From positions 682,001 through 746,000 of the forward strand of contig OZ237763.1 of assembly GCA_965178125.1 (NCBI GenBank): a stretch of 64,000 nt of DNA, written 5' to 3'. Source of the stretch: Bilabrum cf. latius (taxonomy: Eukaryota). The notes under the pieces are model-generated. The model was not told the DNA's origin, searched no databases, and was given only the letters and a program-made list of their open reading frames with translations. Positions 7,547 through 53,248 of the stretch are shown piece after piece. How positions within the stretch are numbered: the first letter of the stretch is position 1; each line of letters begins with the position of its first letter. The position numbers were made by a program, and so were the translations under genes.

Positions 7547-10500
7547 TCAGTGCCCACGCCGCCTTCCGCGTTTTCTGGAGGTGCGCACTGCCCCGGCAGC
7601 ATCGTTTCTCTCCTGCGCAATCCGCGAGCGGTCCGTGTGATAGAACTCGTCTAGCACCCCGACCGTGTGCCTAGAATTCAGCCGGCCCATGCCGTGCAAC
7701 CCGATACCCTCCTGCTGCTCGCCAAGCTCTCTTCCACTGAGCAGCCTGCCGGTCCGTACGAGGTCCTCCAGCTTGCGAAGGCGGCTGCCACGCCTCCAGT
7801 GCCTCGCTGTTTCACTCTCGGCGTCGCCACCGCCCGCCTAGCCCAGCCCTGTCCCCACACTATCTCGCGCGTACCCCTTCAGAGCAAGCGAGAAATCCCG
7901 CCTCTTCGCACTTGCACTACGTTGCACCCGTGCCTTCGCCATCGGGTTGTTGGCGGCGGCGGGCCTCTGCAAATCGGACTCCCTCTCCTTCGAGTTCCCG
8001 TCCCGCTCCAGCCTCCTCTGCGCCTCGAACTCCCTCTCCCTCTCCCTCCGGATAGCCTCGGGACTCTCCGGATCTTCCTGCAGGATCGTCCACCAGAAGA
8101 GTAAGAACAGCACGCCCAGGCACGTTATGCTGCCGATCCCGACCACGTACGTGAGCCCGAGTGCCGCCTGCTGCAGCACGTCACCGTACCTCGCCTGCAT
8201 CGTGGGATGCTGCTGAATTGCAGATACAGTGTTGAGACCCACGGCAAGAGCAGACAGCAGTAGAGTGCCTGCTTTGCCCACCCTCTTCCATTCGAACTCT
8301 TCGAGAAAGGGAGCTGCCCACTCGATCGCAACCATGGCAGACAGCAGCACAAAAATGGAGCAAATCCCAGCAAACAGGGCTCGAGTCGGCTCGTTGGGCA
8401 CCCACAGCACCTCAAGACCGGCTAAGCAAAGCAGCACCATCCAGTCAACCACACGCACCCACGCCCTGGAGGCACGGTAATCCCCATCCACAAAGTAGGC
8501 CAGCCGGTGAGTTTGCCGCAGGATCAGCGACCGGTCTCTCACTGTCTCCAGCATCACTCGCGCCATGGCAGGCGACACGTTGACCCCGAACGACTCAATC
8601 TCAGCCTGGAGTGCGGGCAGAGGGCCCGAAGTGGGTGACTCCGCCAGTGCCCTCTGCACGTGGCCGGGTGCACCTGAGCCTCTTTGCGCACGCGGTGCAT
8701 GGGCGGGCGGCTGCCGCGGGTACTCCTTGCTGTCTGACTCGCTCCGTCCCCTGGACTCCTATTGGGCTTCACCCCGCAGCATGCCCTGTTGCGGCCGCTT
8801 CCCCAGCCTCGGGGCTCCCGACCGATACGTGCTCTCCTTCTTCTTTGTCAGCGCCCCGCTTGATCGCATTGGGTTGCTGAAGTGAACTGCGCCTCCGTCG
8901 CTGTCCTGGCTGGAATGGTTCAGCTGCGGCCCGCTCGTGTCCATCCCTTCGGATGCCGCCTCTGTGTCATCTTGATCCGCGAGATAGTCTCGCTTGAGCT
9001 GCCGCACCGAGAGAGATGCAGCCTCGTGGGAGAACGGGCCAGATGTAGGGGTGGCAGCAGCCGAGGACACGCGTTGGCCTGGAGCTGCAGACGCCCTCGC
9101 GCAGCAACCCGTGCTACTTTGCTGTCGCATTTGCTGTTTCCGCTCCTCAGCGATAGCCATGTTGAGCAGGGTCTTGGTCGCGAGCAGCCGTGGAGCGGAT
9201 GGGGAGGCCTCCACTGTGCGGTCCACTTCGGGCACGATCCACAGCAGCAGCACGAGAGGGTACCCCAGGAGAATGAGTAGACCGGCTATGCAGGCCAGGG
9301 CCAGGGCGAGCTAGTGAGGAGCGTCCCGGAAACAGACCACAGTGGGGTCTTTCACTAACAGCAGCACATCCGTGTCTGACGGGTCGTGCCCCAGGCTGGC
9401 GAGGATGCCAGCTTCTAGCGACCCTAGCCCAGCACCAGCACCAGAGGCATTAGGCTCGGTAACGTTGGCGGCTTGATATTCGCTGCCAGTTGAGATGTTC
9501 GCAGCGCTGCCAAGTGCCTCAGGGGGCAGCTGTACGGCATCGACTGCGGACTCGGCCACCTGTGCAAGCGCCATGGGGGTCCTGCAGTCGACTACCTGCA
9601 CGATGGTGGTGCACACGATGGCGTACAGCAGTGACAGTGCAGTCAACAGTCCTCTCGAGGTGATGCCAAGAGATGTGGTTGCGTCGCCTCTGGTTACTCT
9701 GCCCGCGTGAAGAATGCCTTGCTGGCCTGGCTTGAAGCCTGGCGAGCTGCGGCCAGGGCCGCGCGACAGTGGTGATGAATCCGTGCCCACTCGTTTGCTG
9801 GAGCCCATCACCTCTCGCATAGCTGCCGCGGGGGAGGCGGGGTGGGACTGTAGTCCCATACCCACCGGAACCAGGCCTGTCCGCACTGATAGCCCTTGAC
9901 CCTTGCCAGCCGGCCCGTCTTTGCCGGTCTGATGGTGCGCGTGCGACATGGGATTTCGCACGAAGCAGGAAGCGGATGTGTCGCTGGGTGAGGACATGGG
10001 TTCTCGAGAAATCGACTCGGCTGGCAGTCCCGAGGACCACAATGCAGTATACCCTGCGATCCCGATGAAGATAGCCACCCCGAGCACCACCATTTCCTGG
10101 GCCAGCTTGATACTGCCAACGCAGTCAGGGTGCACCAGCGCGGAGCTCTCAAACCGAAACACGTCCAGCATTCGCACCACCGTGTAGTACCACTGGGGCA
10201 GGCCTGGCTGCACCGCCCTGCCTGCCTGCGCCACGGTCTACAGAAGCACGCCAGCGAACAGCGTGAACTGTGCCGTCCTCTTGGCCGCCAGCCCGAGCGG
10301 GATCTCTCGCGCGTATGCCACCGTGCCAACGCCAAGCATGAGCACGATGCAAGCGCCGAGCACACCTCCGCCGTACAGCAGCACTGGCTAGATCAGCAGC
10401 CAGGCAGATGGCGAGGAGGGACACAGCTGGCAGCTGCCATCTGCCTCCGGAAACCTCCCGTCCTCGCACCTCGAGCATCCAGTAGACCCCTGCCTGTATC

Positions 10501-13500
10501 CATACCCACACATAGATGCCTCGCTCTCACTGCTCCAGCCCAGGCATCGCTCCACGGCAGGTGGCTCGCACTGCACTACGAGTCCAGAGTCGGCTGACTC
10601 GGTCCAGTACCCTGGCATTGGCAGTGCCTTGTATCCACCGGGGCACACGGCGCCACCGGGACACGGCCTGCACTCCCCACCGGCACCAAACGCGCACACC
10701 AACCCGGCCTTGACTGCGTCTTCATTCGAACAGAGAGCCCCTGGCTCAGGATAGCCCACGCACTACTCCACGTACTCGATTCCGCCCCTCAGTACGAGAG
10801 CAGTAAGGCCCCTTGGACTCCCAACGACGCCCTCACCGGTGAATGCTACCTACAGGGAGGTGCCAGATGCGCCATGATCTAGCGCGAAATCCTCGGTGCC
10901 TGGCTCAAATGGAGCGAGAAGCACGCACCCACCGAGCTCAAACGATTCATTGAGCCCGCCTGTGGAAAGTTTCCACTCTCGGTCTCTGTCCTGCATCGCA
11001 CATAAATCGTGTAGCAGCGACATGGTCCGGCTGTCCGCGAGCACCCGAGTGACATTGGCCCCAGATGGTTGCACTTGCAGCTCCCTTGCGGCTCGACTAG
11101 GTGCTGGAGATTCCTGATTAGATTCGGTATCGAATCCCGGTTCAAATCGATGACGTATGGATGCCCAAGGGGAGGAAACAGGGGCATGGCCGGCATCACT
11201 TCGCACAGGGGGGCTCGCAATTAGTACAGACCGTGCCGGACAGGCGTCTGCTGCGGCTCCTCCACCGCAAGCAGCACCTGCATCCGGCACGCGCACCCTC
11301 GCTCCGTCCATACTGTCCACTACTTGCACCACCTGTGCTTGCACACCCCCTACAAACACGAGCGAGTCATACGAGAAACACGGCACTCTGGTAACACCGT
11401 CAGTAGACATGGGACATGCCAGCGTGACCTCGGCAGACCCACTAACCACAAGGCTGGGGCCAAGCCAGGCGGCCCTAGTAGAGTCATCAGTACTCGCAGC
11501 CCGGAGGGCCTTTTGAATAGAATTATCTATCGATTCAGGGCCGCTTTCAGACAACTAACCATTCGAATTGTCCTGCAATCGTCGGCTGCTTTCATCTGAA
11601 TCAGGCAGAGCATCCGTTGACCCATCACCGGAGCCAGAGCTTCCCCACGCGGACAGATAGCGAGAGCTCCTTCCAAGAATGGCAGCGGCAGAACCGGGTG
11701 CAGGAGTGTCTTCCGTTGCACCGTCTGTTTCTGCGCCCCACACAGCGTCAGGAAGACGTGTGAGGATGTCGCTAGCCTGCGGCCAGCGCACCGGCCTTGC
11801 TGTCACTGGCACGCTCATTGCGAGAGGCTGCTCGTACACAGCGCCGCTCGGTGGACCTGGGAGTGCAGCCAGATCAGACGGTAGCAGCACGCGCTGATCT
11901 AATTCTGCCAATAACGAGGCAGCAGCTGCCTTCTAGGTCCCCACCATCACGCAAGTGAGCCATCCCCGGCCATGCGCGGGTTCCCTGTCTCTCGGCCATC
12001 GATCGGGGTCCCCCTGGCCTCGATTTGCCTCCGTTTGCAGCGACACGGTCAATGTTGCTCCCTGCTGCTGGTCGTTATCACCGTCATTGGCGCTGGTCCA
12101 TACCTCTGCATCTCTTGTCAGTGCCTGTACTGACGGCTTCGCCTCATGCGTGACTAGCCCAGTGGGATCAACCGAATGCCCCGCGCAAGCCAGTACAACC
12201 GCTTCATCGGCGGCAGGGGGTACTGGCACGCGGATGTGAAACGCCGGGGCAGAGCCAGCTGCAACTGACAGTGCGCTGCTGGACGTTGCGTGAATAGCCA
12301 CTCCAGCATCCGAGTCCCGCTTGCCAGGGTACAAATCAAGGAGAGATGAGGCAGCGAACATAGTGCGGTGCGAGCCCGCTTCGTTCGCCCTACTGGCTAG
12401 CTCAGCCTCAGACAGCCCGGTCACCACATCGACAGCATCAATCGGGGCACCCAAAGACGTGGACTCAGTCGGTGAGGTCAGCACCGCTAGCGATGTGCAA
12501 GCAGCCACTGATAGATCCACAGGCTCGCCTATCACAAGGGGTGAAGACGCGCGCCCGTCCAGCGCGGCTGTGAAAGCCCCTGGCAATGCCAACCGCATGG
12601 CACCTTGGCCTGGCACCTCCCCGGAGAACGGAAGCACCGTCAGCTGCGTTGACAATTCAACGCACACGGCGGATGACCCCACAGGTGCTTGCTGGTCCAG
12701 TGCCTGAAGCGCAGGCATTCCCACGAGTGGCCTTGCCTCCAGGGCCCGTTGCTCTCCCAGAATCGCACGTGCGTCCATCAGGGCCGTCCAGTCTGACGGA
12801 GGCACGGGAGGTACAAAGGCAGTTATGTTGAGCCCACGCTGTACAGATGCAGCTGCGGTCCCTGCAGCAGCTGCTGGTTGCTCTAGAATGTGGGCAGTGC
12901 TGCGCAGGTCGCTCACCCTGCCAGAGCCACCGCTCACCCGCACTCCAAGCTACGCACTCGCAAGCCGCGCAGGCAACCCACTCACTGTCCAGTCATCTTG
13001 TGACCCAGTCAGCACATGCATCAAATCTACCCGCAGGGTATTCAGCACACCTATGGGGTTGGATAGATCCGCTGTCTGGAATACCAGAGACACGTTCACA
13101 ACTGGTGGGAGCCACCCGATCGATGCAGCGGCCCCGTCTCGGTCATTTGAGCCTGCAGTAGCACCCAGGGTGGCAGCAGCAGCTGCCGGAGCGCCGCTTG
13201 AGTCACGATGGTGATCTTGCTGCAGAACTGCGCCCGAGCAGATCCTAGTGGTGATTGCCATTCTCGGCCCGCACGCGGCTGTGGATCCGCTGATGGGAGG
13301 CAGGGGGTGAACGCCCTTGCATTCATGCGACGCACCCAATCGTGGGACCTCGGCCAGCGAACCTTCAGCTGCCTGTGCAGCTCTCGCGGCCCCCATGGGC
13401 CAGGTGCACTGGGGACCCTGGTCCAGGTATACGGTGATCGATGCGGGTTTGCCATACAGTCTCACATCTGGGCTTGCCACGGCTATTCCACGCAGCTAGT

Positions 13501-16500
13501 CAAGCCTATCTTGGAGTGTGAAGTTCTTCACCAGCAACACTGGACTAACTTCCACCTGCACAGCCCTGCCGTGCATGGCCTCACGAATGTCATCGAATGG
13601 ACCGACAGGCAGACGGCCCTGGAGTCGCCGCACTGCTTCCACCCTCAGGTCATGCAGGGGATCCGAGGGGTGAGAGGGCGAGCGCAGCCACACCTGCATG
13701 AGATCCGCGGATCCGGTAGCCACCGTCTCATCTGCGTCTGCAAAGACGGGCTCCGCGCGCATGCCACCAACTGAAGCTCCCGATACGCCTGTGCTTGTTG
13801 CTATGGGCAGGGTCGGGCTGCTCGCAAATGGGAAGCGAAGAGCTCGCGGCGATGAGTCGTTCCCAGGCTGGATCCTTCGAATCGCACTTGAGGGCCGGCT
13901 GGCCTCTTCCAAGGCGAGGTGGGCCTCGTGCATGCCAACGTCCGTCCTAGTTGGGATCAGGTCGGAAGCCAGGACTGAGATTGGGAAGATTGCCTGCGAT
14001 TGAGCAGTTTGCTGCAGCTGCCAGTACTAGTTGGAGGCTCTAAGTAGCGCATCTGTGGGCGCGGGAAGCCACACACCAAGCTGGGTCCGGTTCAAGTCCA
14101 CTGCCCCGCGAATCTCTGGTGGCTGCTAGCTGTACACGGCAGGGTCATTCGTGGCTCTTATCGTGCTGCCTCTTGGTTCGAGATCACGCAGTTCAATCGA
14201 CATTGGTACCTGGACAGCAACTCTGGTGTCGCGTCGAGACAGCGTACCGCCTCGGGCAATGACTGCATCCAAGGAATCGAACCACGCAGTTTCGGGCTCA
14301 AGACTGGAAAGCAGATCCCGCTGCCCGCTCACTGCGAGTTCGAGCGCGAGCGTCTGCACCTGTGCGAGACCGGCGGTGCAATTGATGCTTGCATTTGCGC
14401 CCTGCTGCAGTGCAACACCAATCACTTCGCACGCCGTTGCTCCTCCACGCAGACCCAGCAATACGTCCAGCTGAACGGAGGGTGATGCAGGAGCCGGTGC
14501 ACCGTCAGACGAGGAGCCATATTGCTGTGCCAATCGTCCAAACAGTCTATAGAAGCTGCCAGTACCCAGGCCGATCGCAATGCTTACATTAAGCGCATGA
14601 CCAGGGCGCTCCCAGGCACCGGCCCATGGATCATGCTTCAGAGCAGCAAAGGCGAAATCAGCAGCCAAAGCAGTTCCAGATGAGGCATCGACAAAGCCTA
14701 CTATGTTCGATGAAACAACTACAACTGGCTGCTGGTGCTGCACCATGCTCTCGTTTCGCGACTCAATCTTCACTCGCAAGAAGTGGCTCGGCTACATGCC
14801 AGGCGAGGGCGGCTGGAATTCGAAGGGCTCGAACTGCCGGCTGAGGATGCCCGGAGCAGGTTGCGCAGTTGACCACGCCGAGGACTCTATCCCTAGTGCG
14901 CCTATAGGAAGCAAAGCCTCAGACACACCACGGGCACGCAGCAAGCCCCGCAGGCATGCAGCATCCCCCACAGCCTGCACGGCCATAGCAGTGGTCACGT
15001 CCCTCAGAGCGGCGAAGGGGCAGGTTCCGACGGCAAGAAGCAGATCTGCACCGCTGTGAGCCGTGACAACGGCACCATTTATGGCGATGCGGACTAGCTC
15101 TACACCTGCAGCCAATGCATCATCGATCACTGTCTCCAGCACCGTGCCTGGAGGTGGCACAACAGCTGTCACGGTTTCATTCAATTGGGATCCTCGGCTC
15201 AGAATGGCCTCGATGCTCTAACGGGAGGCAGCAAGCGCTGCAGCCAAAGCAGGCACAGAAGTCGAATTGGAGGAAACCGGACTTGCAGCCGAAAGGTCGA
15301 ATGCTGGAACAGGATGCACTGACAGCAGCTGCATGGATTCCCTGTCTGTCGAGTCGAGGTATACCCAAGACTAAGTAGCCCGGCGGGGAGTCTAGGCCTG
15401 GAAATGAACTATTTCCAGAGGTACAGATACAGTCAGTGTGCGACTCGCAGAGCGATTTGTCAGCTCTGTGTAGCCTCCGACGGGAGGGAACACGGCCTGA
15501 GATAGGCGTCTTGGGTTGGAACCGCCTGCACTCCAGAGCGACGCAGTGAAATTCACCGACGCTACGCTGTCTCTAGGCATGAGGCGGGACTTTGCGACAA
15601 GTTTGTCTTGTACCACGCCTTGGAACACACCCGCTGGCATAGACACGATGACACGGTCGTGGCTGCCAGATACAATCTCGCATGCGACGCCTTCAATGAT
15701 CCCGACGAGGTCACGGCCGTCGAGCCAGTGGGAGAGCCCTTGTCCTTGCACCTCAAAATCGACACGGGCGTCCAATGGCGGTACCTAGTACAGCAAGTAC
15801 CCTGCGACCTGCACAATGTACGATGAGGTAGCGGATGGCGTCGCAGAGGCCCACAGCGGCACCGTCAAGGCCAGAGCCTCCAACTACTCTCTGCTTTGCG
15901 TGACGTTCATGCGAAGGGTTGCCATGTCACCCGAGGCTGTCACCTGCCGCCACGCGTGGACAGTTCGGTTGTGGTAAACCGGTTCAAACTCTGTGCTACT
16001 GAGCGGGTCTACCTCCACCTGGATGCGCAGATCGGGACCTCTAGTCAAGAGGGGCTAAAAGCTTGAGGCATCAAGGAGGTCCCAGTCCCGGCCGCTTGCC
16101 ACGTAGCTGCACGGCACAGACGTGAACTCGATACTGAGATCTGTCGTGAACGTTGCATTACCACGCACCGAAGCACTCATGGCTGCCTCGGCCACATCCT
16201 GATCATCATTCAGACACTCGAACAGCTGACTAACTTGGAACGCAACGGTAAGGTTGCGGAGGATATGAGTTCGTTCTAGTCGTTGCGGTGGAAGCACCGT
16301 GCCGGCAATACCACGTGAGTTTGGGCACTGCAGCCGAACTCGGAGGTCATGATGCTGCAAATGGCTAGAAATACCTTCTCCCGACATAAACAGCAGCAGC
16401 CTGTCCGTGTCAACCTCGAAGTCAATCCGTACTGGGTCTGCTACAGGCAACGATACGCTCAATCCCGTGGACAACCGGCGATCTGCGATCACTTTGTAGA

Positions 16501-19500
16501 TTCTATCGATGAAGCGGCCACTCAGAGCGTATGGCAACCACAAATCCTCTGTGGTATTGAATGCCAGCTCGGGCTGAAGCGAGCGCATGCCAACTGACAG
16601 CGGCCGAGAAAACCCCAGGCACTGCTGGCCAAGCGCATCCACCCTCTGAATTTCTTGCTCCGAGATACTGTAGTCGCCGCTCAATATCTCTACCCCAGAG
16701 TGAAGCTCCAATTGCAGGAGATCAGCACTGACCGCCAGCCTGCCGCCCATTCTTCCTCTAGCCTAGATTTCGTTCAAGTCAAAGATATGGCCCGTCTAAT
16801 TCAGCAGCTGCCCGTCAACGCCCCCGATGCTGACGTTCTCTGCCACTAGACTGCCGATTCCGTCGGGTGTCAATGGAAGCATCCGACTCGTATTCAATTG
16901 TACGGAGGCAACGAGAGTGGTCCGGGACTGATTCCCCAGGAACAATCGGTCCGGACAGTGATCAGGCCCCCACGCAACACACCCAAACGGAAGAGTCTCA
17001 TTGGTAGGATACAGTGCTGCAGACGGCAAAGCTGACCACCATACAGCTTGAAATGCCCCGGAAAAGTTGCCTGCAGGCAGCTCTCCACCCCCGGGGAAGA
17101 CCAGCCTGGACAGCGTCATGGTGGCATCGCGTCCGTGCAACTCGCTAGGGGGAGATATCGCTACCTGGACAAACATGGCAGACGGAACGGAGCTGCCAAT
17201 GCTAAAACCTTCGCCCGCTAGAGGTTCGAGTGGGTCAAAGCTGGACTCATTGACGAAGCTGTCACGCAGAAATACCAAGGCATCACTTGCGTTCACCCAA
17301 TGCGACGAGTAGGACATCGCTTCCAGCACATCACCATCCGCAAGCTGCATCAAGAAGGTTGCGTATGGCGGCGGCAGAGGACCCGACTGAATGGTGTTGT
17401 CGTGTGCGATGTCATCGGGGCCAAAGGCTGCGTCAACGGGGACCTGCACCAGCGCCACTGGTGGCAGCTGGTCACCCGAGGCGGGCACGATAAAGCGTGG
17501 TCCCAGCAGTGCTGGGCGGTCTGCGGTAGCGTTCTTCAACTCGATGCTTTGAGGCTCTGCAGAGGCGTAGTAGCTTCTTACCACTGAGCACGCGGCGTCG
17601 TCCTTCTAGTTAGCCCATGTCTCCAGGTCTAGCAGACTCGCTGCGGGATACCCAAGCAGTGTCTCCGGGTAATCGCTAAACTCATCGAATCGGTACGACG
17701 CATTGGACGCGCGAGTGGTGTTAAGCTGCAGCTACAGAGGCATCGGGAGGGCATCTGGCCAGAAGACACACAGCGCAGCCTGAAGAGACGCGTTCGTGCC
17801 GAGCACTGGAAAATGCGCCACAGCCTCGTAGCTGAAGTGGGGGTGTACTGTGCCTGCGATGAGATCAGCTTCGGATGGGACCGCGAAATAATTGCCAGCT
17901 GCCTCCCTCTCAGCTAAAGACATGGCACGGATGATGTTTGGCACGTTCACAACCCGGCTTCCCGGGCCGATCCCCTGCACTGATGAGACCCAGCTCCTCT
18001 GCATAGGTGAGTCCCCCAGCTGCACGAAGGCCATGGCACCATCTCGAAGCATGGACACCACCGGCAGCTCGCCGCGGATGGCTATCCTAAGCTGCTGCGC
18101 GATCGCTTGCACACTACTCAAGCCGGCAAGATCCTAGCTGCTAATGGGAGCGCCAGACCTGTCAGTGACCAGCATGACCCGCGGCAAGAGAAGCTCTCCC
18201 CGCCCTAGGCAGTTGGTGCACTACACAGAATCGGTTCCAGTGGCCTGCGTCAGGTAGTGGAACGAGGCAGCGGGGATTCCGAACCCAATCAAGCTTCTGT
18301 CGCTGCTGGAATTCAGAAACAGTGCAACCCGCCTTCCCTGCACCTTGGACAGCCCGAACGCAGTGCCATCAGCACGGAGATATCCCCCGTGATGTAGCTG
18401 CGAGTTCAGCAAATCAGTGGCCGGCATTTCTGGAAGATCCTTGTACAGGTGCAGTGGATGCGCGCCATGCGTGGACTGAATACCCCACAGGCCACCATCT
18501 CTGTACGCAGCAAACTGCAACCGAGTCCATTCGCGCTGTTCACCGGCAGCTTCGATGCCAGGAAGCAAAGCCTGCACCTGCGACTTGTTGCCGTAGATGG
18601 ACCAGTCGACGGCCAACATCTTGCTGCGGCTCGCTATTTCCAGGAGCACTCTCTGCTGGGTCCCATTGGGGAACTGCATCGGCAGCAAGCAGGAGGCAGT
18701 CCCTCTTTGGCCACCCCTGGGGCACAGGATTGGCCACCTGTCGTACCCATCGACAGGGTCCACATTTCCCTCTGGGATGGCGTGCAGCTCCGGAGTGCGC
18801 TGCAGACAGAACGTGGCAGCCGAGACCCCCTTGAATCCTGAATTTGACTCCTAGTCATTCCCCCCAATCGCCACGACCCTACCCCCACCAATGTGCGTCA
18901 GACCGAAATTGGCTCTCTCCCCGGCGCCCACATCTGTGCCTCCGTCAGGTGCCAGCTGCTGCTCCCAGTGATGGCCATGATCCCAGGACCGCCAGCAATC
19001 TGCAAAAAACGGCTAGTTGGCTATCCCTGAGCCGCTGAGGATCCCGGCGCCACCACCTGTAGTATCCTTGCCCCCGCAAATCACAATACTACCATCAGGC
19101 AGGGCTGCCAGCTGTGCCCCCCTCCTCGGGGGCCAGTAGGAGCGATGATGTGCCCTGGCAGTCAGTCCAGTCTCGATCCATGTATTGCCAGCATCGAGCG
19201 AGGCAGCGCTGGCTGACGACAACGCCCTGCCGTCGCAACCCACGATGACCACGGCGCCAGATGAAGCAGTTATCGCTCTATTGTCGCTGCAAGTTCCAGG
19301 GGCATTGGACACCAAGTCCCATGATTGCCCAAGGTCGTCTGATGCATGCACCTAACTGCGCGGCGAGAAAGAGGGGGGGTCTACCCCACCAACGCACAGC
19401 AATCGGCTACCATCACTTCGGTTGACAGCAGCAGCCCCGAAGTACTGGAGGGTAGGCATGGAAGCTGTCAACGTTGACGACATGCCCTGCGCTAAGCTGC

Positions 19501-22500
19501 CAAGGTTCGTGCGGAACCCCCCGGTGGAATGCCCGAGGATTGCAAACAGCTGCTAGCCGGCGGGCCCATCCTCATCGATTGGTGCATTCCGTGGGACAGG
19601 TGGCAGGGTCACTAGGCTGCGCTGAGTAGCAGATGTCTCATCACCTTTTCTATACGGATAAAACGATTGACCATAGTCGTCGCTTCTAAGCATGCTATTG
19701 CCATAGGTCATGGGGGCACCACTGTCTCCATCCGTTGCAATTATCGTCCCGTTGGACAGCCCAATCGCATCGATAAATCGTGCGGTATGGCCTAATTGAC
19801 TGTAGTCGACCAACTCTTGCCAGTCTCCCCCATCACAGTTGCTATCAGCAGTCATGGACTCGGCTGTTGCACTCGCGATTCCTGCCCCTCTCGGCCTGCT
19901 GAATCTGGACACTGCAGTCCTCAACATAAATCGGGGAAAAGAGGAATTGCTGCCGTTACGTGAGGGAAACACGCGACTGAGATCCTCCCGGTACCGAGCG
20001 CCAAGGACTGACACTGGACGCATCTCTGCGACTGGCATATCATGCCCTCCTGGTGCAGACTGAAGCCCGGCCAGCTGCTCCAAATCATGGATGCTGCGGC
20101 GCCCCCACGAAAGCTATGCGAAACCGTCCTAGTTTGCCGAGAGTGAGCTTGCGTTCCCATTGCCAACCATATTCCCCAGCTCGAAGTACGTTCCATCGAC
20201 AGCATGTAGCTGCAGTCCTTCCGGCCATCGAGCAATCGGAGGCAGACTGTATACGGCTGCAAATCCCAGCGTTTCTGAAGCTACTGAAGCGCCAGGGGCT
20301 CCAACCAGCAGCAGAGGAGTTGAATCGATCGAACAATCGGTGAATGCGCAAGGCACAATCGCAACGGATCGGCCATACCGCAAGCCAGCAGCGAGATATT
20401 CCCTGGGTGGGGAAATGAGCCGAACGCTTCCAGGCACAACGAGGGCATGGTCGATGGTGGCAAGTGGTGATCCCTTCAATCTTCGTGAGAGAGACAAAGA
20501 TGAATTCTTGGTGCCTGACATTGCCGCGCTGAAACCCAGCGTGAACATGAGCACTGCGCCCTGGTTCTGCCTGTCAAACGTGGTGGGAAACTCGGCCTTG
20601 TACTCGGAATGGACGCGAGTCCCATCGAAGGGGGTCTAATAGGCCTAGCAGCCGACAGCGACCTCGAGAAGGCCGTCGCCGTCCAGATCTGCTGCAGACA
20701 CGAAGACACCAAAGCTGCGGCCATCGTGTGGAAGCACGCCAATGGGAAACAAACCACCCTTACCACCCATCTGAGGCCCAATTCTTCGGACTGCACTGAC
20801 CATCTGGTTCGCTTCGTAGGTGATCAAATACAGCGCCCCTCCATAAGCATCATTGGTAGCTGACAGCCACGGGACCCTATGTTTCTCTACGGTCGTTCCC
20901 AGGAGAACCTCGGGCTTGCCGTCTCCATCCAGGTCACCTGCACTCTCCAAAGCCATTCCCCAGTGGTCTGCTCCCGCAAATTCATCCACGAGACTATCAT
21001 CGGTGAATGAGGCGAGCTCGGTTTCCGTGGCGAGTCCAGAATGCTGTATCTGGCCGCCTGCTCTGAATGTGGCAGAAATGATACCCCCATCAGAGTTGCC
21101 GTTCAGGTCGAAAATCCCGACCACGACTCCCTCACTACAACCATCGCCGTCAAAATCTACCGCGGCAGCCGAATGACCAGCGTCTGCACTCGTGCTATAT
21201 GAAATCCCAGTAGAAAGCCCTAGTGAATTTGTGGCATGGCTCTTAGTTCCGCCCGCTCGGGTGTAGTAGTGCAAGGTTCCGTTGATAGGGGTACCGACTG
21301 TCGGCAAAGTTGATCCAGCATCCATGGTCGGGCTCTACGACACAGCGAATCGCCAGAACGCCCCTGCCTTCGAGTCCTGCAAGAGAGCACCCACGGTAAA
21401 CCAGACCGAATCTACAGGCAGCGTTGAAGCGCCATCCGAATTCAACCTGCACCCCCGAGTCACGGCCGCGGACGTGCTTATCTGGTCGAGATCTCTCACG
21501 TGCTCACCCTCTTGATCCAGCCCAAGTTGGGCCACCGCCATGCGCCGCACGCGGTAAGCGGCGTATCCCAGCCCGCCTCCATAGCCGTACACATCCTGCC
21601 GAAGCCTGGGCCCGGTACTCCGCCACTCATCGATGGTCTCACCCTCCCTGCGATTGCGCCAATCCAGAAACAGCACGTAAACGACGCCGTCCGCATAGGC
21701 ATCTGTTGTATCGAGGTCACGTACCTCCTTCCTCTGCGTTACGATCGCGTCCAGCTGTCCATCCCCATCGATATCAAACCACCTGGAAATTGATCCAAAG
21801 CCAGAAAAAGCCTAGTCAGTGTGTTCCGACTCGCCCGTGGCCAGCGCGGCAAAGTCCTTGCCGCGCTCGGCTCCCGCCCCCCGCCCAGCCATTCCCATCA
21901 GCCTAGCAGGCTCGACCTAAGTGGGACCCACCCACAGACAGCCCCTGCACTCGGCTGTCGCCCAGTCGAGCCCGGCTGTCCCCGCACCAGTGCTACCATT
22001 AGTAGTAGCAAACGATACTCGGATGGAGGCAAGGCCGGCCGGGAGCGGAGGAAGCTCGGCTGCAAGTGGTGCCTACGCTGGTCCGCGCGCGCTGCACGGG
22101 CCTGACGTGGGGCACTGCAGGCTGTCGTATGCTGCCTCCAGTACTGAGGGCAGCACGTGCGCTTCCCACCGTAGCATGGGACTCACACCAATAGATTCAT
22201 TCCTGGATTCCCCTACTGGCAGCTGTCTGGCAGGGGCGATCGGCCGCGCTTCTTGCGTCGACTGGTTGTACTGGCTAAAGGCCCAGACCGAGGACACTGC
22301 TCGAACCCATGGCTGCAGGGCCACCCCAGGTAGCAGGCTTGGTCCACTACCATGTGCGTGCCAGTCCGCGCTAAAGCATGCCCCCGCCAATTCCTGCGTG
22401 CTGCTTGCATCCAGCCTGCCTCCCTCCTGCAGCATGGCCTGCCCCGAGTGGGCGGCGAGGAGGGCCCGGGGCACCACGCACACCTCAACCACGGGTGCCA

Positions 22501-24691
22501 CCGAGATGCGGGGGCGATCCGAGAGCATGGGCGCCTGCAGGTTCATGGCGATCTGCTCAATGACCCACCTGGAGGCATGCAGCTGTGGCTCTTGGCTGGC
22601 ACAGCACAGTGGAGGCCTGTCTGGCCTGACCCTGGACCAGGCAGAGCCCATGGGCAGCACCCTCTGGTGGTGGGCGCCAAGCCCCTACTTTGGGCTGCTG
22701 CTTTCGACCAGCACCGTTGACTCCAGGTCTCGCCGGAGCACTGCTAGGGTTGTCAAGGATGCAAGTGCCATGCGGGGGGCACGCGTTGGCCCCCCAGTGC
22801 TGCTTTCTGCATTGGCAACAGGGTGGCCGGATCTAGGATAGCCTGCCAACGTGGCATTTTGCGCGCCCGCAGCCGGCAGCTCGGATCCAAAGTACACGGC
22901 CCTCTACCCAGACCACGTCACTGGATCCGATGCGTTCAGGAGGTCCATGGACATGAGATAGCTGCTGTTCCACCCATTCAGTCGCTGGAAGTGAATAGCC
23001 TCTTCCTCGACCGCTTCTGGCTGATGCTGTTGGTCATCCACAATCTCCAGCATGCCCACGGCGATGAAACCGGTGCTAGTTGCGGTCGGATCGCATGGCC
23101 TAGCCACTGCTATGCGAGTGCCTCCGGGGTACATGGACAGGGCAGGCAGTATTTGCATGTCGGTACCAAAGTGGCACTGCGTTGGCGGCGCTTCCACGCC
23201 ACCAACCCAAGCAGCCTCTCGAATGAATGCCCCAGGCTGGCTCTGCCCGTCTACCATGCCTCCAGCAGACAAAAAAATGACGAGAAGCCGGTTCGTACGA
23301 GAGCTAGCGACGATATCCGGGGTGCCGTCCCCATCCACGTCAGTCGAGACAAGGGCCCGGCCGATCCCCGCGTTGCTCGGGATGTCCGCACCACCGATTG
23401 TCCCGCCCATGGTGTCCGCAGAGATGTAAGAGAGAGCAAGTACTTGTGGCTCGGTACCTTTCTTGATCCAGAACAGGTATACTGCGCCCTTGGCTGAGCC
23501 GCAGCCAGGACATCCATAGGCCACCACAGACGACTCCGTGATGGACCCGCTTGGCATACCATCGGGAGGGGCCTGAGCCGTACCGCCGAAGGACTGGACC
23601 GGAGAATCTACGGAGGCCCAGCCCCGCGTCACGAATGCCACTTGTCCTGCGAGACTACTCTCCGTGACGGCTGGATGCAGCTCCCCGCTGAGCAGCAGGC
23701 TCGCCTCCGCCACCTGCCCGAACCGCCTGTGCACCACATACACGAGGCTTTGCTTGCGCACGGGCGAGATGCCCGGCACAGTGAACATGGTGACCACCAT
23801 CGCATCCGGGCTCCCGTCGCCCGTCACGTCCCCGATGGCACCCGCCGAGTGCGCCACGCCCGCCAGCCCCATTGCGGGGTCATCCGTCCTCCTGATCTCG
23901 TGCACTCCCGTGGTGAAACCCATGTACGGAGTGTCCCCGCCGGTGCGGCCGGGGACACTGGCCTGCGCCATGAGCGGTCCCTGGCCCAGTTCCAGTAGAG
24001 CTGCGTTCCCTGCAGTGGCGCTGATGATGAGCAGGTCGTCCACGGTGCCTGGGTTGGAGCTGCCTCCCGCCGAGCCCGTGTCTCCCAGCGCAACCACGAT
24101 GGAGTGATCTCCAGGCGTAATCGAGCCAGCGAAATTCGTGTTCAGGTGGTCCGACAGACCCACTGGGTTGGCCACCAGGCCGCTGATAGACGCAGGGGCG
24201 GGGTCGAACACCAGTTGGTTCTGGGGGGAGAGCAACGGGGTGGTGTCGCATTGCCCAAGGAATGCCTCTGCTCTCATCCACGGGCGAGTATCGCGGTCCT
24301 CAACCATCTTCGTGACATTCTCGCGCTAAGCAGGCGGCAGCACCAGCTCGGGGTGCAGGCGCCTGGGTGCCTGCACTCTTGCGACCGAAAGGCACAGCCC
24401 GTTTGCGATTCCAGATCGTGGCTCGTACTCCGCGACAAGAACAAAATCGTCCCGCCCAAAGGAATCGTCAAGCGAACTGTATCCCCCTATTCCTTCCCAA
24501 GGCGACCTGATTATGTCAAACGCGGCCGGCCACTGCCTATAGTCATTCGAGCCTTCAATCTCTCTACCGTCCAACTAGTACAGCAGCGTGAAATTCACTG
24601 ATGCACGGCAGACGTGCAAAGCCATGATTGAAAATAACAAAAGGGCGCAAGGCAGTATAGCTGCTTTGTGATCGAACGAAGCACGCAGCAT
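7547..24691 (-). CDS. Giant (~5,714 aa) intronless receptor-like membrane protein: signal peptide, FG-GAP/integrin-alpha-type Ca-binding repeats, BNR/Asp-box and Kelch-like motifs, Cys-rich region, C-terminal multi-pass TM domain
   Basis: All 25 listed minus-strand ORF pieces from 7838 to 24574 are in one frame and each ends in TAG. I read the gaps between them and found more TAGs (about 42 in total) but no TAA or TGA between ATG 24691 and TGA 7547. Motifs: GDVTGDG, DVDGDG, DIDGDG, DFDGDG, GDLDGDG, ADLDGDG; SDDYGQSF, SDDLGQSW, SWDHGHHW; CRPCPGGAVCPGG...PGYW; hydrophobic helices at about 8100-10390. Confidence 0.9.
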
Positions 24692-24965
24692 GGTTCACTG
24701 ATTGGTCTAGGTGCCCGACGAATAGCAGCGCCTGGCGTCACAGAGGTCGCAATGCTGATCAGACGAGGTTCATTGCACTCCAAAGCAACGATCGCAAACC
24801 ATCAATAATTCCCGCTTGCTGCTAGTGGAATGCCACATCTTTCTGCCGGAGTTCGTTCGTCGCGGTTTGTTCCGGTGTAGCAGCTGTGACCTGGACTGGT
24901 GAGCGACAACATCGGGCTCGTCTTGTGCAGTCTTTGCGTGCTCTGTCGGAATTATGTGCTCATCA
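24692..24965. promoter_or_regulatory. Short divergent intergenic region, candidate bidirectional promoter
   Basis: 274 bp between head-to-head start codons (24691 minus, 24966 plus). No specific motif identified. Confidence 0.35.
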
Positions 24966-33912: not shown

Positions 33913-34078
33913 TCGTATGCATAGATTGGTTGGAAATCGCGCGGGAGAGAATAGGTCTGCTGGTCGCTCGTTCCGGTTTGACCGGCGAGGGGCGGGTGGC
34001 GGCCGAGACGCAATTGACAACGTTGGGGCTCGTATTCCGGACTGTGGCTGCAAGCGTATTTCTTGCGAAGACGTCATA

Positions 34079-37000: not shown

Positions 37001-37892
37001 GTCGGAAGATAACTTGACAGGACTGGAACGCGGGTAGAAGGAGTTTACCGATGGAAGTCTCGAGTCGGATCAGGCCCAGACTCCCAGCGAGCAAGGGACC
37101 GCAGGGACCACGGGCGACAGCGATGGCGAAGGAGATGGTGAGGCCCGTCAAGGCGATATAGGCTCCCAGTGTTCAGGTGGGGGTCCTGCAGGTGGCACCA
37201 GCTAGGCGCATGTGGCAGCGACTGACGCGGGGGATACATCGGATGCAGCAGCGACTGACGCGGGGGATACATCGGATGCAGCAGCGACTGACGCGAGGGA
37301 TACATCGGATGCAGCAGCGACTGACGCGAGGGATACATCGGATGCAGCAGCGACTGACGCGGGGGATACATCGGATGCAGCAGCGACTGACGCGAGGGAT
37401 ACATCGGATGCAGCAGCGACTGACGCGAGGGATACATCGGATGCAGCAGCGACTGACGCGAGGGATACATCGGATGCAAAGCATGAGGATTCCCACGAAA
37501 TGGAAAGCGGTCGATAGGATCTTGAAGAGACTTCTGGGCCAGACGCCAGCCCGGGTGCAGATGCAAGTGAGGCTTCGGCTGACCCAGACAGTGGGGCAAG
37601 TGCAGCTGGCCCGAGCAGTGGTGCGGGAGCAAGCTCCAGCGCAGCAGCCGCAACTGCCACCGGTAAAATGGAGACCGGCTTTGTACATAAGGACTCAGAA
37701 AAGTTCCTATCCGAGGACCTGGCTCATCAGCTGCGCGCCGGCGTGGACAGAGCCGTGGATCTACGCCTGGTGACGGCAGAGGTCGGCCAGACTATGCGTG
37801 GGTAGATCGATGCATTGGCTGAGGCACCCAGCCCATACAATGAGCCCCAGGCAAGCGACGCCTGGTCTGCGAGCAACGTGACAGAGGAGTAA
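34079..37892 (+). CDS. Armadillo-repeat protein with acidic low-complexity tail (~1,236 aa); probable intron 34204-34306
   Basis: ARM-like helices: AALWAIGHFS, ATAIANLT, AAAAIWNVC, IVDAGAIPLL, GGIEAAAALL. The frame continues through TAG at 36462, 37035, 37203, 37515 and 37803 to TAA 37890. A GTGAGA...TCTCGCAG intron links ATG 34079 in the correct phase. Confidence 0.8.
37215..37478 (+). repeat. Coding minisatellite, 8 x 33 bp (GCAGCGACTGACGCGRGGGATACATCGGATGCA = AATDA[G/R]DTSDA)
   Basis: Contiguous near-identical units with a single G/A variable site, in frame within the ARM gene tail. Confidence 0.95.
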
Positions 37893-37932: not shown

Positions 37933-38425
37933 AGTTGGTGAGGCCAGTAATGTCTCTGAGATTGAGGTCGCGCGGTGGGCGCAGGACCCGCTCGAGGTGC
38001 AGGCTCAGATGCGACGTAGTGATGCGAAGGAGAGAGAAAGAGCGACTAGTGATGAAGAGCAGGAGCGGCGGCGACTCGGGGTGGGCGAGGTGGGAGGGCG
38101 GAGCAGAGAGAGAGGGCGAGAGGGGGGGGGGGGGGGGGTTGGGGGCGAAGCAGAGAGGGAGGGGGCGGCAGTTCACCAAGTGGGGATGAAATAGAGGAGG
38201 AAAAGATGATTGGTGGGGTCATCGGGCTGATACGGCGGATTGGAAGGGGGAGGCACAGGCCGGGCAGGTGGAGGTACGGGCATGTGTGTGACGAGTGGCT
38301 TGGATCAGGGGGATCGGATCACCCGACCACATGCGGACGAGGAAGTTGGGAGGTCACAATTGGACTTGAGCGGCAAACATGCCGTGTGCTATTCGGGCGC
38401 TGAGGGGCAGCGCTCGCCAGTTTTT
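37933..38425. repeat. Dispersed ~490-bp repeat 'X', copy 1 (uninterrupted)
   Basis: Colinear similarity to 53138-53250 + 54223-54474 + 56130-56209. Starts AGTTGGTGAGGCCAG, has a purine-rich middle, and ends in the hairpin GCGCTG-AGGGG-CAGCGC followed by GCCAGTTTT. Confidence 0.85.
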
Positions 38426-38669
38426 CCTAATGATAGCAGTTGAGGTGTCCTTGGCAGCATTGCGCGACTTCTGGTAATGGGCTATAACTTTTACCAGATT
38501 GTGGGGGTCGTGTGCCCCAGAATAATACCAAAATACTGGGTAAGGACCACACAAAGTAGATCTATTGTCACTGACTTCTGGGGGGGATCTGATATTTTGT
38601 GGACTCAACTCAAAAGCGCACGCTATCACGAAGAAACATCTGGAACGAGGGCCCGGGACCTACCAGACT

Positions 38670-41600
38670 TCACGCTTCAGCTGCAATGGCCTAAACCACC
38701 TAAGCTCCACCCTGGGGACCCATTTCCCCCTGGGGAGCGTCAGCGTTCACGTTCCCTCCGGCGCCCGCTGCCGGCACCCCGTCCTGCTGCCCGTTCTGAG
38801 CCAACCCTGCCTTGACGTTGGCGATCGCCACGGCGAGGTTGTTGTTTTCGGCTGCCCCTACAGCCAGGCTGGCAAAGTCCTCCCGGACCGCCCTTGCGAG
38901 CGCCCGTTTGGCCTTCGCTGCAGCCCTCCTCGATCCCTTCGAGACAAAATCGAGGATCCTTGAGTGGTCCTGCATGACCCGTGAGTACATAGTGTGGTAC
39001 ACACGCTGTTCCCCGCGCACGTGCTGGTGCTAGGCGGCAACGGAGAGGCGAGCCTTTGCCACAGAAGACCACGAGAGGCGTGCGTTGGCCGGACGAGTCG
39101 AAACCAGCCGCCCTTTGTCCTCCTACCTCTTCTTCCGCAACTTGTCGAGCACCTGCAGGAACTCGACCGACTTCTCCCCGATTCCCCCCAACACGTCCAC
39201 CACAAAGGGTACGACCCGCACGCCACTGCGTACCGCCCCTTTCTGCGTCCTCACGGTCCCAGGACACCACTTGTCTTCTCCTCCGATCCGGACGCCGAGC
39301 GTTCCGAGGTCGACGGGCCTGCCGTAGCTGGCCAGCTTCGTGGCATGCGCGGCCCGCAAAGCAGACCCCTCTTGCCAGTCGCTGCCAATCCTCCACGACG
39401 AGCGGTCCCACCGGTAAGTTGCCGCAGTGGAATCAACCACCGTGACATCGATGAGATAAGCCGTCCCCTCGTGCTCAAAGAACAGATCGCCTCGTGGCAC
39501 GAGCGGACCGCGCCGACCCGGCAGCCGGGCCACTTGGCCCTCTGGCTCCCGGATAGGGCGTCTGCCCGTGGCCTCGCGGACCACCTGCTCGAGCACGTTG
39601 AGCACCCGGAAGTGCCTGCGGCCTGGAAGGCCTCCGCAGACACGCTTGTCCTTGCACGTGGCACCGTGGCGAACTGACTAGATCAGTTCGACTACCTTGC
39701 CCTGCTTCCGGCACCCCGGGCAGATCTGCGTGACGCGCCACGCCTCCCCACATGCACCGTGCGTTGCCCCAAGAGGTTGTGGGGGACAGCTGCACGGCTA
39801 TGGGATGGCGAGACGTTGGCAGAACATGCCCCGGGCATCTTCAGGCTGGACTCGGCTCAGGACAGAGAGCGGCGCATGCAGCCAAGACCCGGCTCCTTGG
39901 GACCTGGCGGCGCGGATTGTGGCTCGCGCCACTCCTGCGTACTCTCTGGTGACTGCATCGACTGGAGCGAGTCTGTCATGCGCAAGCGGAGATGAGGCAT
40001 CCCAGAGGAGCCTCTCCACCTGCACTCGCTCAGCCAGTGCCGTCACATGGCTCTGGTTGTGCCCTCCTGCGGCACCTTCGAGAAAACGAATAACCGCCTG
40101 CGATGCGGTGGGTGCCGGCTGCTCCCCAGCCAGCTGCCTCGTCACCCATGCCCGAAGGTCCTTCACCTCCAGGCGCCAGGGTTCAGTGGCCCCACCGCAC
40201 AGCTCCATACGGGCTGCCTTCTCGGCTGGGCTGCCCAGGAGTTCCGAAGTGTGGGCTGTGTCCCACACCATACCATAGCGTGGGGGGACGTCAGCCTCCG
40301 GAACAAGTGGAAGCAACGGACTCGGGAAACCAGCCATCCCGAAATTGTCTTGCTTCCCCTCTTGTACGAGTCTCCCGTACTTCGAGATTGCGGTCATCAC
40401 AGTGTCCACAAGGGAGTTCAGGCGCGCGGTGCGCCCTCGCAGTGGGTTCAGCAGAGGGGGTGCCTCCCCGGCACCTGCCGCCGCACCTTCCCCGACCTCC
40501 TCCGCCGGGTCCCACTGGTTGAGCGCCACCTGCAGGTGTGGCAGGTTGAAGTCGCGTGCTACCCTCGCCAACCAGGGCCACACATCCAACAACACCCCGA
40601 CGCACATTGCCTCCCGGGTTAAATCGGCAGGCACGAGCCCCACTCCGAGACCCCCACGGGCAACGGATAGCGGACCCAGCACGTCCAACACCTGTCTCTG
40701 GGCCTGCGAGAGAGCGCTTACACGCATCCCTGTCAGGAACTCCAGAAACGCTCCCTACACTTCCTTCAAATGGGGTGTCACCCCGTCCTTGAGCTCGGGC
40801 AAGAGGCACCCGCTCCTGTGCACGTGCGTCCACGCCGGCACTACGCACCGGGCAAACAGTGCGCGCGCACTGATTGGGTCCAGGTAGGCCAGGCGAAAAG
40901 CCTGAACCACCGTCTCTTCCAAGCGTCCCTTCAAGACTTGTTCGGCCACTCCGACTTCGGTCCCTACCGGGACGCCCAGGATCCTCAGCCCATGCTCGTG
41001 GACCACTCCTTCGAGCCTATCCTCCTGGTCTGGCGCCAATAGGTGGACCAGGCGCTAATAGGTGGCTCGGGAGGGGGAGAAGAACGACGTTTTCTTCTAG
41101 TTGAGGGAGAGGCCGACGTCCCCCAACTTCCCCTCCAACGTGGCGATGGCTGCCCTGACATTATCGAGCTCCCCCAACAGGAACACGTCGTCAAGGTACG
41201 CTACTAGGTACACATCCATGTGGGCAATCTTTGTCGCTTTCAGAGCGCCCTAAATGGCTGAGCAGAACAGCGCTGGAGACAAAGGCGACCCCTACAGCAC
41301 CCCCTCCAGGTTCTGCACAAGCTCTGTTCCATCCTCGCCAGACACAACACCATGTACTGCGTGCTGCAGACACTGGTGTACGTAAGTGCCCAGTCCGGTG
41401 GACAGCGACGCCAAAGCTTGCAAGGTCGCCTTCCGATGGATGGAGCCATATGCATCCGAGGCATCCAGCGCAGCGACCACCCACTCAGGGTTAGCCCCGA
41501 GAAGAACCTGGATCGTTGCAATGGCTCCGTCCATCCCGCACTTGAGCCCCGCCCCCATCTGGTGTGGGGCGCAAGCTCGCTACACCTTCGGCAGCAATTC

Positions 41601-43022
41601 GGGCCGAAGGGCTCGGCTCACAAATGTATGCCACTGAGGCTGGATTGCGATGACCCTGAACTCCGAGCCCCCCTCCCCTTTCGGGATTGGGACCCCGCGA
41701 AACAGGCCCAGGCACGCGAATAGGCACGGCGGCAGGGCTCCCTCAACCATGGACTAGCAGAAGGCATGGAAGTCGTCATAAAGCCGCTTCACATCTGCTC
41801 CCTCCCCGGTCAGCAAGGTTTTCAGCACCTCTCTCGTCACACCAAAAGCATCTGGCGCCTTGAGTCGCAGGGCCTTCTAGACCTCCTCCCCTAGTCTAGC
41901 CCCCGGCAGCTCCACCACATGCTCGCGCGCGTCTCCTCCAGTTCCCCCTCGTCGGCCTCTTCGCACCGGGCGTGTCCAGCGGAACCTGGGGATCGGCTGG
42001 GACCTCTTGGTGCGAAACTTCCCCTAAACCTTCGCCTGCATTTCGGCTGCCGTGCCCCTAGCGTGGGGCCTAGCAGCCAACCGCGACATGGCCTTACGGT
42101 AGTCCCCGATCGACAAAAACCGGAGGCAACTGCGTACTGCCTTGCGCGATGGGGGGGAAGGAAGTCCCTTGCCACTGACGCTGGAAAGGATACCCCCCAA
42201 CTTCTCCACAATCCTCCCGCGGGCTGCGAGAGACTCGGGATCATCAGATGGGGAGCTCCCACTCTTTCGGTCTACCACGGCTCCACCAGCTATGGCTTCC
42301 TACTCAGCGGCAGCTTCGCGCGGGACACGAGAATCCGACGGCCGGCGACACAGCAAAACAAACACTTTCAGCTTATGTAAAGCCTACAGCGTGAGCTTCT
42401 CCTCCAGTTCTTTGCCTTTACCAGAATCGTTGGTCCAGGCGGAGGATACATTCATAGTCTCCTTCAGGAAGAGAGAAAGGGCGGCTCGCGCCTCCTTTTT
42501 CTAATCTAAATTCAAACTACGAAGCGCTGTCTCGCGTTCGGGCCAGAACGCACACTCAAGGATCAGCTTGCGAACGTCGTCGGGCAGTGGCACTGCCTCC
42601 AACTCAGCCGCCTAATGCTCCGCAGGAACCCCCGCTCCGGCCCCGCCGGCAACTTGTGGGACTGCATGTGGAACATTTGCTTCACCCTGATCTGCATCTT
42701 CTTCAGCTGCGGCGACTGCGGCATTATCTGCCCCCGGCGCCGCCTCAGCAACCACGATTGCTGCACCTCCGACCGCCGCCTCACCCACAGGCTAGGGAGG
42801 CTAAGCGTGACCGAAGTGCTAGCGTCCAATGACTCCGTCGGAATCAGAATCATTGGAATCGGGGGGGTTGGGGACTCCTGGTCCGGTCTAAGCGGCGCTG
42901 GCAGCACCGTCAGAATCCAAGGCGAATCTTTGCGCGACTCCCACACCCATTCTGGGCATCTTACCCTTACCGGCAACACGCCCTGAACGTAGGACGATCT
43001 GACCCCCCCCGGGGTCATCCAT
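38670..43022 (-). mobile_element. Intact single-ORF non-LTR retrotransposon with RT, CCHC zinc knuckle and restriction-like endonuclease (CRE-clade-like), ~1,450 aa
   Basis: One frame from ATG 43022 to TGA 38670 with about 23 TAGs and no TAA/TGA. RT motifs: PIPK..FRVIAI, PHQMGAG, LDASDAYGSI, GVL*GSPLSPALF, YLDD (41187-41198), GLSLN*KKT, GLRILGVPVG, GGLG, GAGSWL. CPGC..HGATC knuckle. RLE motifs: RRH, REP, RGDL, IDVTVV, KLASY, PFVVDVLGG. Element ends not resolved. Confidence 0.9.
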
Positions 43023-43172
43023 TTCCCAAGGAGATTTTTACTTATATGCTACTATCTATATAAGGTGTACATGCCTGGTGATCTCATCTCCAGGTCCATG
43101 GAAGCCTAGCGAACGTTCCCTGACTGCAAAACCAAATCCAGTGACTTATTTTTTGTTGTTACACCAGTATTC

Positions 43173-49697: not shown

Positions 49698-49742
49698 CAG
49701 TGACAGGGACAGGGAGCCATGCGGCTGCGATTGTAACGCGCA

Positions 49743-52594: not shown

Positions 52595-53248
52595 CTTGAC
52601 GAAGAAATTCAGCGAGGCGATACGGTTGCCGTTCTGGTCGTGACTCCAGAGTGTGGACTCTTGCTGAGCTCCTCTTGTTTTGCTTGCTCAGAGTTCAGAA
52701 ACAAATGAGTAGATCCACCAGTGTATTGTGCCAAGATTCAAAAGCGACAGGGCACAAGACCTGCGGTAGACTCCCGCCGCGCAGTCACCTGGTCCACCGG
52801 GTCGCCCCCCGCGACCCCTGCCGGCACGACCGTTGCGCCTTGTCTCAGGGAAACGGCTCCTCGCCAGTGGGTCAATCAACGCACACAAATCACTACATCC
52901 CCAGGCAGCCCTCGTGGCTGCCTCCCCCTTTTGCCGAGTCGTGAGTGGGTGGGAGAGAAGAAAGTTCCTGGCTGAGCATGCGTCTGTGCTTGCTTTGCTA
53001 ATCCTGGTTGGTGCAGAGGCTATTCTCTCTCTTTCCCACGTGTAGCCTCGAATCGGAATTACACCTCGCGGGTCGATCACACGATCACACGTGTCCGTAC
53101 TATGCCAATGCAGTAAAAATTCCAGTGGATAGCGCGTAGTTGGTGAGGCCAGCAAGGTCTCTGAGATTGAGGTCGCTCGGTGGGCGCAGGACCCGCTCGA
53201 GGAGCAGGCTCAGATGCGACGTAGCGATGCGGAGGAGTGCGAGAGAGA

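Follow-up and report, generated by a model that had tools for sequence, protein, structure and literature searches.

In-frame TAG codons in a retrotransposon and in host reading frames of Bilabrum cf. latius point to UAG as a glutamine codon

The retrotransposon and the TAG at its QG motif

The stretch of DNA analyzed here, referred to as the window, comprises 64,000 nucleotides of Bilabrum cf. latius (Eukaryota; assembly GCA_965178125.1, contig OZ237763.1, positions 682,001 to 746,000 of the forward strand), and all coordinates below are those of this window. Its minus strand harbors a retrotransposon without long terminal repeats (non-LTR retrotransposon), whose single long open reading frame (ORF) encodes a reverse transcriptase (RT). 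The codon at the glutamine (Gln, Q) position of the RT 'QG' motif is TAG, and the present study concerns the decoding of this triplet in the element and in the host genes beside it. The features of the element are as follows.

38673..43037, minus strand: single long retrotransposon ORF, 1455 codons, with 23 in-frame TAG, 0 TAA, 0 TGA and no frameshift
40971..41663, minus strand: RVT_1 reverse-transcriptase domain (PF00078), residues 459-689, 55.4 bits at a gathering cut-off of 29.6
41294-41292, minus strand: TAG where the RT 'QG' motif GxxQGxxLSPxLF has Gln, residue 582 of the ORF
41252-41250, minus strand: second in-frame TAG, residue 596, 14 codons downstream of residue 582
41198-41187, minus strand: YLDD catalytic motif of the RT, with both Asp (D217 and D218 of alignment A1) invariant
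39429..39722, minus strand: C-terminal Cys/His motif CPGC...H...C followed by PRGDLFF...IDVTVVD, recognized by eye, with 73% identity in the related element L001
38672-38670, minus strand: TGA terminating the RT ORF; L001 ends with TGA at the aligned position
38581..38669, minus strand: short 3' untranslated tail; at 38581, contigs from other runs begin or part from the window copy
42890, 42821, 42803, 42794, 42614, 42503, 42386, 42302, 42026, 41879, 41756 and 41582, minus strand: starts of the first 12 TAG codons of the RT ORF
41294, 41252, 41099, 41057, 40757, 39800, 39680, 39125, 39032, 38702 and 38693, minus strand: starts of the last 11 TAG codons

An earlier reading made from the letters and ORF translations (hereafter the sequence-only reading) had pointed to the minus-strand string EGVL*GSPLSPALF, encoded by GAG GGG GTG CTG TAG GGG TCG CCT TTG TCT CCA GCG CTG TTC, in which the stop falls on an otherwise invariant Gln. 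The same letters were obtained when the reverse complement of 40900-41700 was read again, and the Tyr of YLDD lies 32 codons downstream of the TAG, where about 30 had been given. The interval quoted in that reading, 41250..41306, includes the second TAG (residue 596) as well. The alignment to RVT_1 that this reading called for returned residues 459-689 with an expectation value (E) of 8.6e-15. For the comparison with homologous proteins, residues 400-1340 of the ORF, with TAG written as X, were compared with 1.84 billion representatives by phmmer. At E<=1e-3 this search yielded 2090 matches, of which the best 150 were used, realigned pairwise and freed of rows with at least 50% identity; all homologue columns reported here refer to this set. 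The column of the QG-motif TAG is Q in each of the 138 homologues that cover it, and likewise in 24 of 24 homologues in a MAFFT alignment of 24 of the shorter matches. In the profile of the latter alignment it falls on the Q of GVKQGDPMSPLLF in the solved R2 proteins, and the claim of an invariant Gln at this position is borne out.

A single TAG in one retrotransposon copy is insufficient as proof, because such copies are often dead. Over the length of the RT ORF, the other two frames contain 27 and 26 TGA, 13 and 5 TAG, and 2 and 9 TAA, respectively, and random single substitutions in the ORF would generate TAG as 58-62% of the new stops, so that the probability of all 23 stops being TAG by chance is about 5e-6 to 2e-5. 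With 23 TAG only, no TGA or TAA and no frameshift, the ORF is unlike that of a decayed copy.

The element is present in multiple copies, and the cover by contigs rises toward its 3' end in run X4, as expected of 5'-truncated copies. Several of these copies are represented by protein fragments, whose ends and starts suggest that the stop at residue 582 is present in at least two other near-identical copies. The fragment P0011 (97-98% identical; on three contigs, the longest of 13308 bases) ends at residue 581, and P0181 (94% identical; on a 2355-base contig) begins with the first TTG that follows residue 582, four codons on. Comparable ends are found at residue 646 (P0185) and residue 1119 (P0182), both on 13308-base contigs and each just before a TAG of the window, and at residue 485 (P0009, 2355-base contig), just before the TAG at 486. 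The sharing of the TAG with other copies, which the sequence-only reading had proposed to verify, is thus supported at the level of protein fragments rather than of DNA. For contigs of three other runs across 41244-41477, the differences listed, beside which 418 further rows exist, include 41261, 41283 and 41379 and none at 41292-41294. If several copies carry the TAG, it was present in their source element, and in an element that depends on its own RT it would have been translated.

Two further observations concern the variation among copies. Behind position 42916, contigs from three of the four runs contain 18 bases more than the window copy, which lengthens the N-terminal region of the ORF while preserving the frame. 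A decay of CAG to TAG by a process like repeat-induced point mutation or by deamination was considered and rejected, since C>T changes do not exceed T>C changes (25 and 26 in run X1) and such decay would also have made TGA and TAA.

With respect to its type, the RT is closest to R2-type non-LTR retrotransposons according to profile scores against the PDB, obtained without a tree. The best matches of the family profile are R2 proteins (9nl3_A, 4.1e-32; 9dou_A, 6.7e-32; 9nl2_A, 5.6e-26; 8gh6_A, 1e-20), followed by L1 ORF2p (5.5e-18) and group II intron RTs (about 1e-10); the single RT sequence found nothing in the PDB at E<=0.01, whereas the profile did. The element shares with the R2 type a single long ORF and the aligned motifs GxxQGxPLSPxLF and YLDD/A(F)ADD; a Cys/His motif and a PD...D-like stretch, recognized by eye downstream of the RT, may be further points of agreement. 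For the R2 endonuclease, neither the structural model nor the profile search of the PDB yielded a match in sequence or fold. The region 39429..39722 may nevertheless be a restriction-like endonuclease as read by eye, and we take it to resemble that of R2, a likeness that neither the fold model (AlphaFold, 6-row alignment, mean predicted local distance difference test score (pLDDT) 43.6) nor the PDB profile search (chance-level match, E=0.79) confirmed. A Pfam scan of the RT ORF detected no domain other than RVT_1. Identity to the nearest full-length relatives is about 30%, and a word-based protein search with the RT region returned one match of similar length (P0003, 27% identity). A related locus was found once among metagenome contigs (L001), and none among viral contigs or prokaryotic genome contigs.

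The 3' end of the element lies probably near 38581, 89 bases past the TGA. Just beyond it, short high-copy repeat units occupy 37934-38424, and further units are located at 53138-53247, 54224-54474 and 56130-56209. In run X4 the cover of this block climbs to about 22,000 at 37968-38201, many contigs break at 37934, 37952, 38042 and about 38424, and three repeat pieces recur elsewhere in the window with 81-92% identity. Repeat block and retrotransposon begin about 40 bases downstream of the TAA (37890-37892) of a neighboring Armadillo ORF.

TAG in the host reading frames

The reading through TAG is not confined to the mobile element. The following host ORFs were delimited, with their domains assigned by Pfam where indicated.

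7550..24694, minus strand: host ORF with FG-GAP repeats (Pfam), 5715 codons, 42 in-frame TAG, 0 TAA, 0 TGA
24903-26873, plus strand: CTLH and RING ORF reading through TAG (Pfam)
27325-33909, plus strand: CAP-Gly ORF reading through TAG (Pfam)
34143-37889, plus strand: Armadillo ORF reading through TAG (Pfam)
48501-50150, minus strand: WW ORF reading through TAG (Pfam), left out of the codon counts
49737-51965, plus strand: FG-GAP ORF reading through TAG (Pfam)
56389-58092, minus strand: amino-acid permease ORF without TAG

The strongest single case is the ORF of 5715 codons, which has the same extent with or without TAA among the stops, and for which the probability that all new stops are TAG is about 2e-12. 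Eight host ORFs with a total of 13165 codons contain 409 CAG, 107 CAA and 69 TAG, and neither TAA nor TGA. Seven of them end in TGA and one, the Armadillo ORF, in TAA. Together with the RT ORF, TGA terminates eight of the nine ORFs examined, and none of the nine needs TAG as its end.

Expected in-frame numbers were derived from the out-of-frame densities within the eight host ORFs and the RT ORF. TAG is found in frame 92 times where 104 are expected, TAA never where 33.5 are expected, and TGA never where 254 are expected; it has to be conceded that the ORFs were chosen as stretches free of TAA and TGA, so that the two zeros are partly built in, with the 5715-codon ORF as the exception. The comparison of observed and expected counts indicates that TAG acts as a sense codon and that coding frames exclude TGA and TAA. 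Were TAA as frequent relative to CAA as TAG is relative to CAG, the host ORFs should contain about 18 TAA in frame. None was observed, and the window therefore points to a reassignment of UAG only.

Some features of these ORFs and their surroundings are recorded here in their own right. The 5715-codon ORF encodes a giant protein of secreted or membrane type with several SxDxGxxW-like repeats recognized by eye, and it gives no sign of an intron. A search of the window with Rfam at gathering thresholds gave 0 matches. The guanine-plus-cytosine (GC) content of the window is about 60%. It rises to 0.71-0.72 at 28001-34000, with strong GC and AT skew, and this region overlaps the Ala/Glu/Gly/Arg-rich coiled-coil body of the CAP-Gly ORF. 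The WW ORF contains seven irregularly spaced copies of the tetrapeptide GVTS or RVTS, as well as a TAG directly before a run of seven Gln codons (LXQQQQQQQ). With its 5' part this ORF extends over the beginning of the FG-GAP ORF on the plus strand (49737-51965), so that part of it may be non-coding.

The amino acid encoded by TAG and the competing explanations

Relatives at intermediate distance allow a comparison at individual TAG sites. One of them is L001, a metagenome contig of 2016 bases. Over 634 aligned codons its identity to the element is 69%, and it contains five in-frame TAGs before it terminates at the same TGA. Ten columns have a TAG in the element or in L001, and the codon opposite is CAG or CAA in seven, and TAG, GGG and ATG in one each. 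Protein fragments of related elements add the following residues opposite TAGs of the window: Q at 582, A at 596, K at 647 and E at 661 (P0184, 72% identical); Q at 761 and 1080 (P0183, 70%); Q at 1080 and G at 1120 (P0004, 68%); K at 1305 and Q at 1336 (P0047, 67%). For the host, the 5715-codon protein has two fragmentary relatives with 81-88% identity, in which Q stands at 1350, E at 1353 and Q at 2321; one of the two stops just before the TAG at 2363. The 17 pairings at no more than 88% identity comprise 11 Q, 2 E and one each of A, K, G and M. In a likelihood calculation based on BLOSUM62, which leaves out the mutational neighborhood of the codons, these pairings give Gln a posterior near 1, with glutamate (Glu) at 1.4e-5 and lysine (Lys) at 2.6e-7 relative to Gln, and leucine (Leu), serine (Ser) and tyrosine (Tyr) outside the five best amino acids. 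Among the distant homologues, the column of residue 596 is also led by Q (Q 54, H 32 and R 14 of 138). In the aligned sequences TAG is thus placed where relatives have Gln.

A number of points weigh against the assignment of Gln. Four other TAG columns among the homologues drawn from the best 150 of the 2090 matches do not favor Q: residue 428 has N 20, S 10 and Q 10 of 64, residue 486 has A 25, S 18 and G 15 of 121, residue 647 has P 46 of 137, and residue 661 has a gap in 32 and A in 21 of 123. Residue 761 is without clear preference (V 6, L 5, I 5 and Q 4 of 38). Host genes contribute three of the 17 pairings, which is thin for Gln, and the sharing of the TAG among copies is read from the ends and starts of protein fragments and not from the DNA of those copies. 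A scan of the 64-kb window detected no tRNA gene, and the gene for eRF1 also lies outside it. The share of TAG among CAG, CAA and TAG codons is 23/71 (32%) in the RT ORF and 69/585 (12%) in the host ORFs (Fisher p=3e-5), the simplest reading of which would be that TAG is mildly disfavored in host genes and that the element is under weaker codon selection. Copies with 94-99% identity have Q at 338, E at 387, Q at 428, S at 596, K at 647, E at 661, and Q at 761 and 1080 in place of TAGs of the window, that is, 4 Q, 2 E, 1 K and 1 S. This set says little about the meaning of TAG, because all partners are one-step neighbors of that codon. Finally, CAG is a single transition away from TAG, and nonsense mutations would enrich Q partners as well. 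Such a bias matters only if the TAGs are nonsense mutations, which is excluded by the open frames of the RT and of the host genes.

That the TAG at the QG motif is a private nonsense mutation, a chance change from CAG in a dead pseudogene, is extremely improbable. This scenario can appeal to the abundance of dead copies, to the single transition that it requires, to the additional TAGs of the window copy where its 94-99% identical copies have Q, E, K or S, and to the over-representation of TAG in the RT ORF compared with the host ORFs. It fails to account for 23 TAGs without a TGA, TAA or frameshift in 1455 codons (P ~5e-6), for a stop at the same residue in apparently at least two other contigs, for the 69 TAGs that host ORFs read through, and for L001, whose own five in-frame TAGs precede the shared terminal TGA. 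The sequence-only reading had named such a private mutation as what would refute it; the stop recurs at residue 582 according to the fragments, and the relative P0184 (72%) has Q at this site. A sense codon for another amino acid, namely Glu, Lys, Leu, Ser or Tyr, is very unlikely. There are precedents, as UAG is reported to mean Leu in an uncultured rhizarian and Ser in Scotinosphaera (PMC5304391, PMC11687900). Opposite some TAGs of the window, relatives indeed carry E, K, S, A, G or M, whereas the QG column is Q throughout, with a TAG that appears common to copies and hence to an active source element, and the pairings favor Gln over Glu and Lys by orders of magnitude and leave Leu, Ser and Tyr outside the best five. 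The preference of the sequence-only reading for Gln is therefore upheld by the QG column, by the pairings and by host ORFs that run through TAG; its list of rivals was incomplete, as Ser and Lys were missing from it, and both are disfavored by the data. Pyrrolysine, which it did name, is to our knowledge not a reading of eukaryotic nuclear genes and was set aside on this background.

A third alternative is an ambiguous code, in which TAG stops translation in some contexts and is decoded in others, by a near-cognate tRNA-Gln or a weak suppressor. In-frame TAGs would then lower expression, and would do so more strongly in the retrotransposon. We regard this alternative as unlikely. Context-dependent stop and sense codes are reported from other protists, and the lower proportion of TAG in the host (12%) than in the element (32%) is what a somewhat costly codon would be expected to show. 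With 42 TAGs in the 5715-codon ORF, however, almost no full-length product would arise unless decoding were efficient, in-frame TAG shows little avoidance overall (92 observed, 104 expected), and an end at TAG is required by none of the ORFs examined. In-frame TAG is tolerated in the ORFs of both the element and the host, and we conclude, with a probability of about 85%, that TAG is an ordinary codon here, most likely for Gln, whereas UGA and apparently UAA still act as stops. According to this assignment, UAG would be read as Gln by the cytoplasmic translation of a GC-rich, intron-poor eukaryote, and the TAG at 41294-41292 would be a plain Gln codon, one transition from CAG, in an open multi-copy non-LTR retrotransposon. 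By analogy with other lineages that read UAG as Gln, decoding would depend on a tRNA-Gln with the anticodon CUA and on an eRF1 that no longer recognizes UAG.

Comparison with known codes and implications

The code deduced for Bilabrum cf. latius is apparently one in which UAG only has been reassigned to Gln, with TAA kept out of coding frames. A reassignment of UAG to Gln that retains UAA as a stop is reported for Iotanema spirale (Fornicata), Protocruzia tuzeti and some phyllopharyngean ciliates (PMC5304391, PMC11687900). The present code resembles the Iotanema type, in that UAG is Gln, UGA is a terminator and UAA is absent from coding frames. In both organisms a minority of the Gln codons are TAG, about 12% in the host ORFs here and, as reported, about 8% in I. 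spirale (PMC5304391). The two differ in that TGA is the main stop here (8/9 ORFs) at a GC content of about 60%, whereas UAA is reported as the main stop of I. spirale (PMC5304391). The status of UAA as a stop in the present organism rests on its in-frame absence together with the one ORF that ends in TAA.

The reassignment of both UAA and UAG (UAR) to Gln is reported for many ciliates, ulvophytes, Hexamita and other hexamitin diplomonads, Streblomastix and Amoeboaphelidium protococcarum (PMC11687900). Bilabrum cf. latius shares with these codes the reading of UAG as Gln and UGA as terminator, but differs from them in the complete lack of TAA in 13165 host codons, for which the expectation is about 18 if TAA behaved like TAG, although 64 kb could miss a rare use. 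No GC-rich non-ciliate lineage with a UAG-only Gln code, beyond those named, appeared in the literature searches, which leave room for an earlier description of the present code. The comparison supports a known type of code variant in a lineage that is new unless already described. A separate origin of this rare code in a GC-rich, intron-poor non-ciliate, with a TAG that is slightly costly and retrotransposons that are consequently richer in TAG than host genes, is a tentative and rather doubtful proposal. If TAG were slightly costly, selection would remove it from host genes and not from mobile elements.

Gene prediction with the standard code splits the proteins of this organism at TAG, and public protein collections hold both the element and the 5715-codon gene as fragments ending at TAG. 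The reading of TAG as Gln, with TAA probably a stop, is thus needed to annotate the genome. Where an element present in many copies has an invariant column at a catalytic site, that column provides a quick diagnosis of the code from a short piece of DNA. Few codes treat UAG and UAA differently, and each new lineage helps to test how the reassignment of a stop codon begins.

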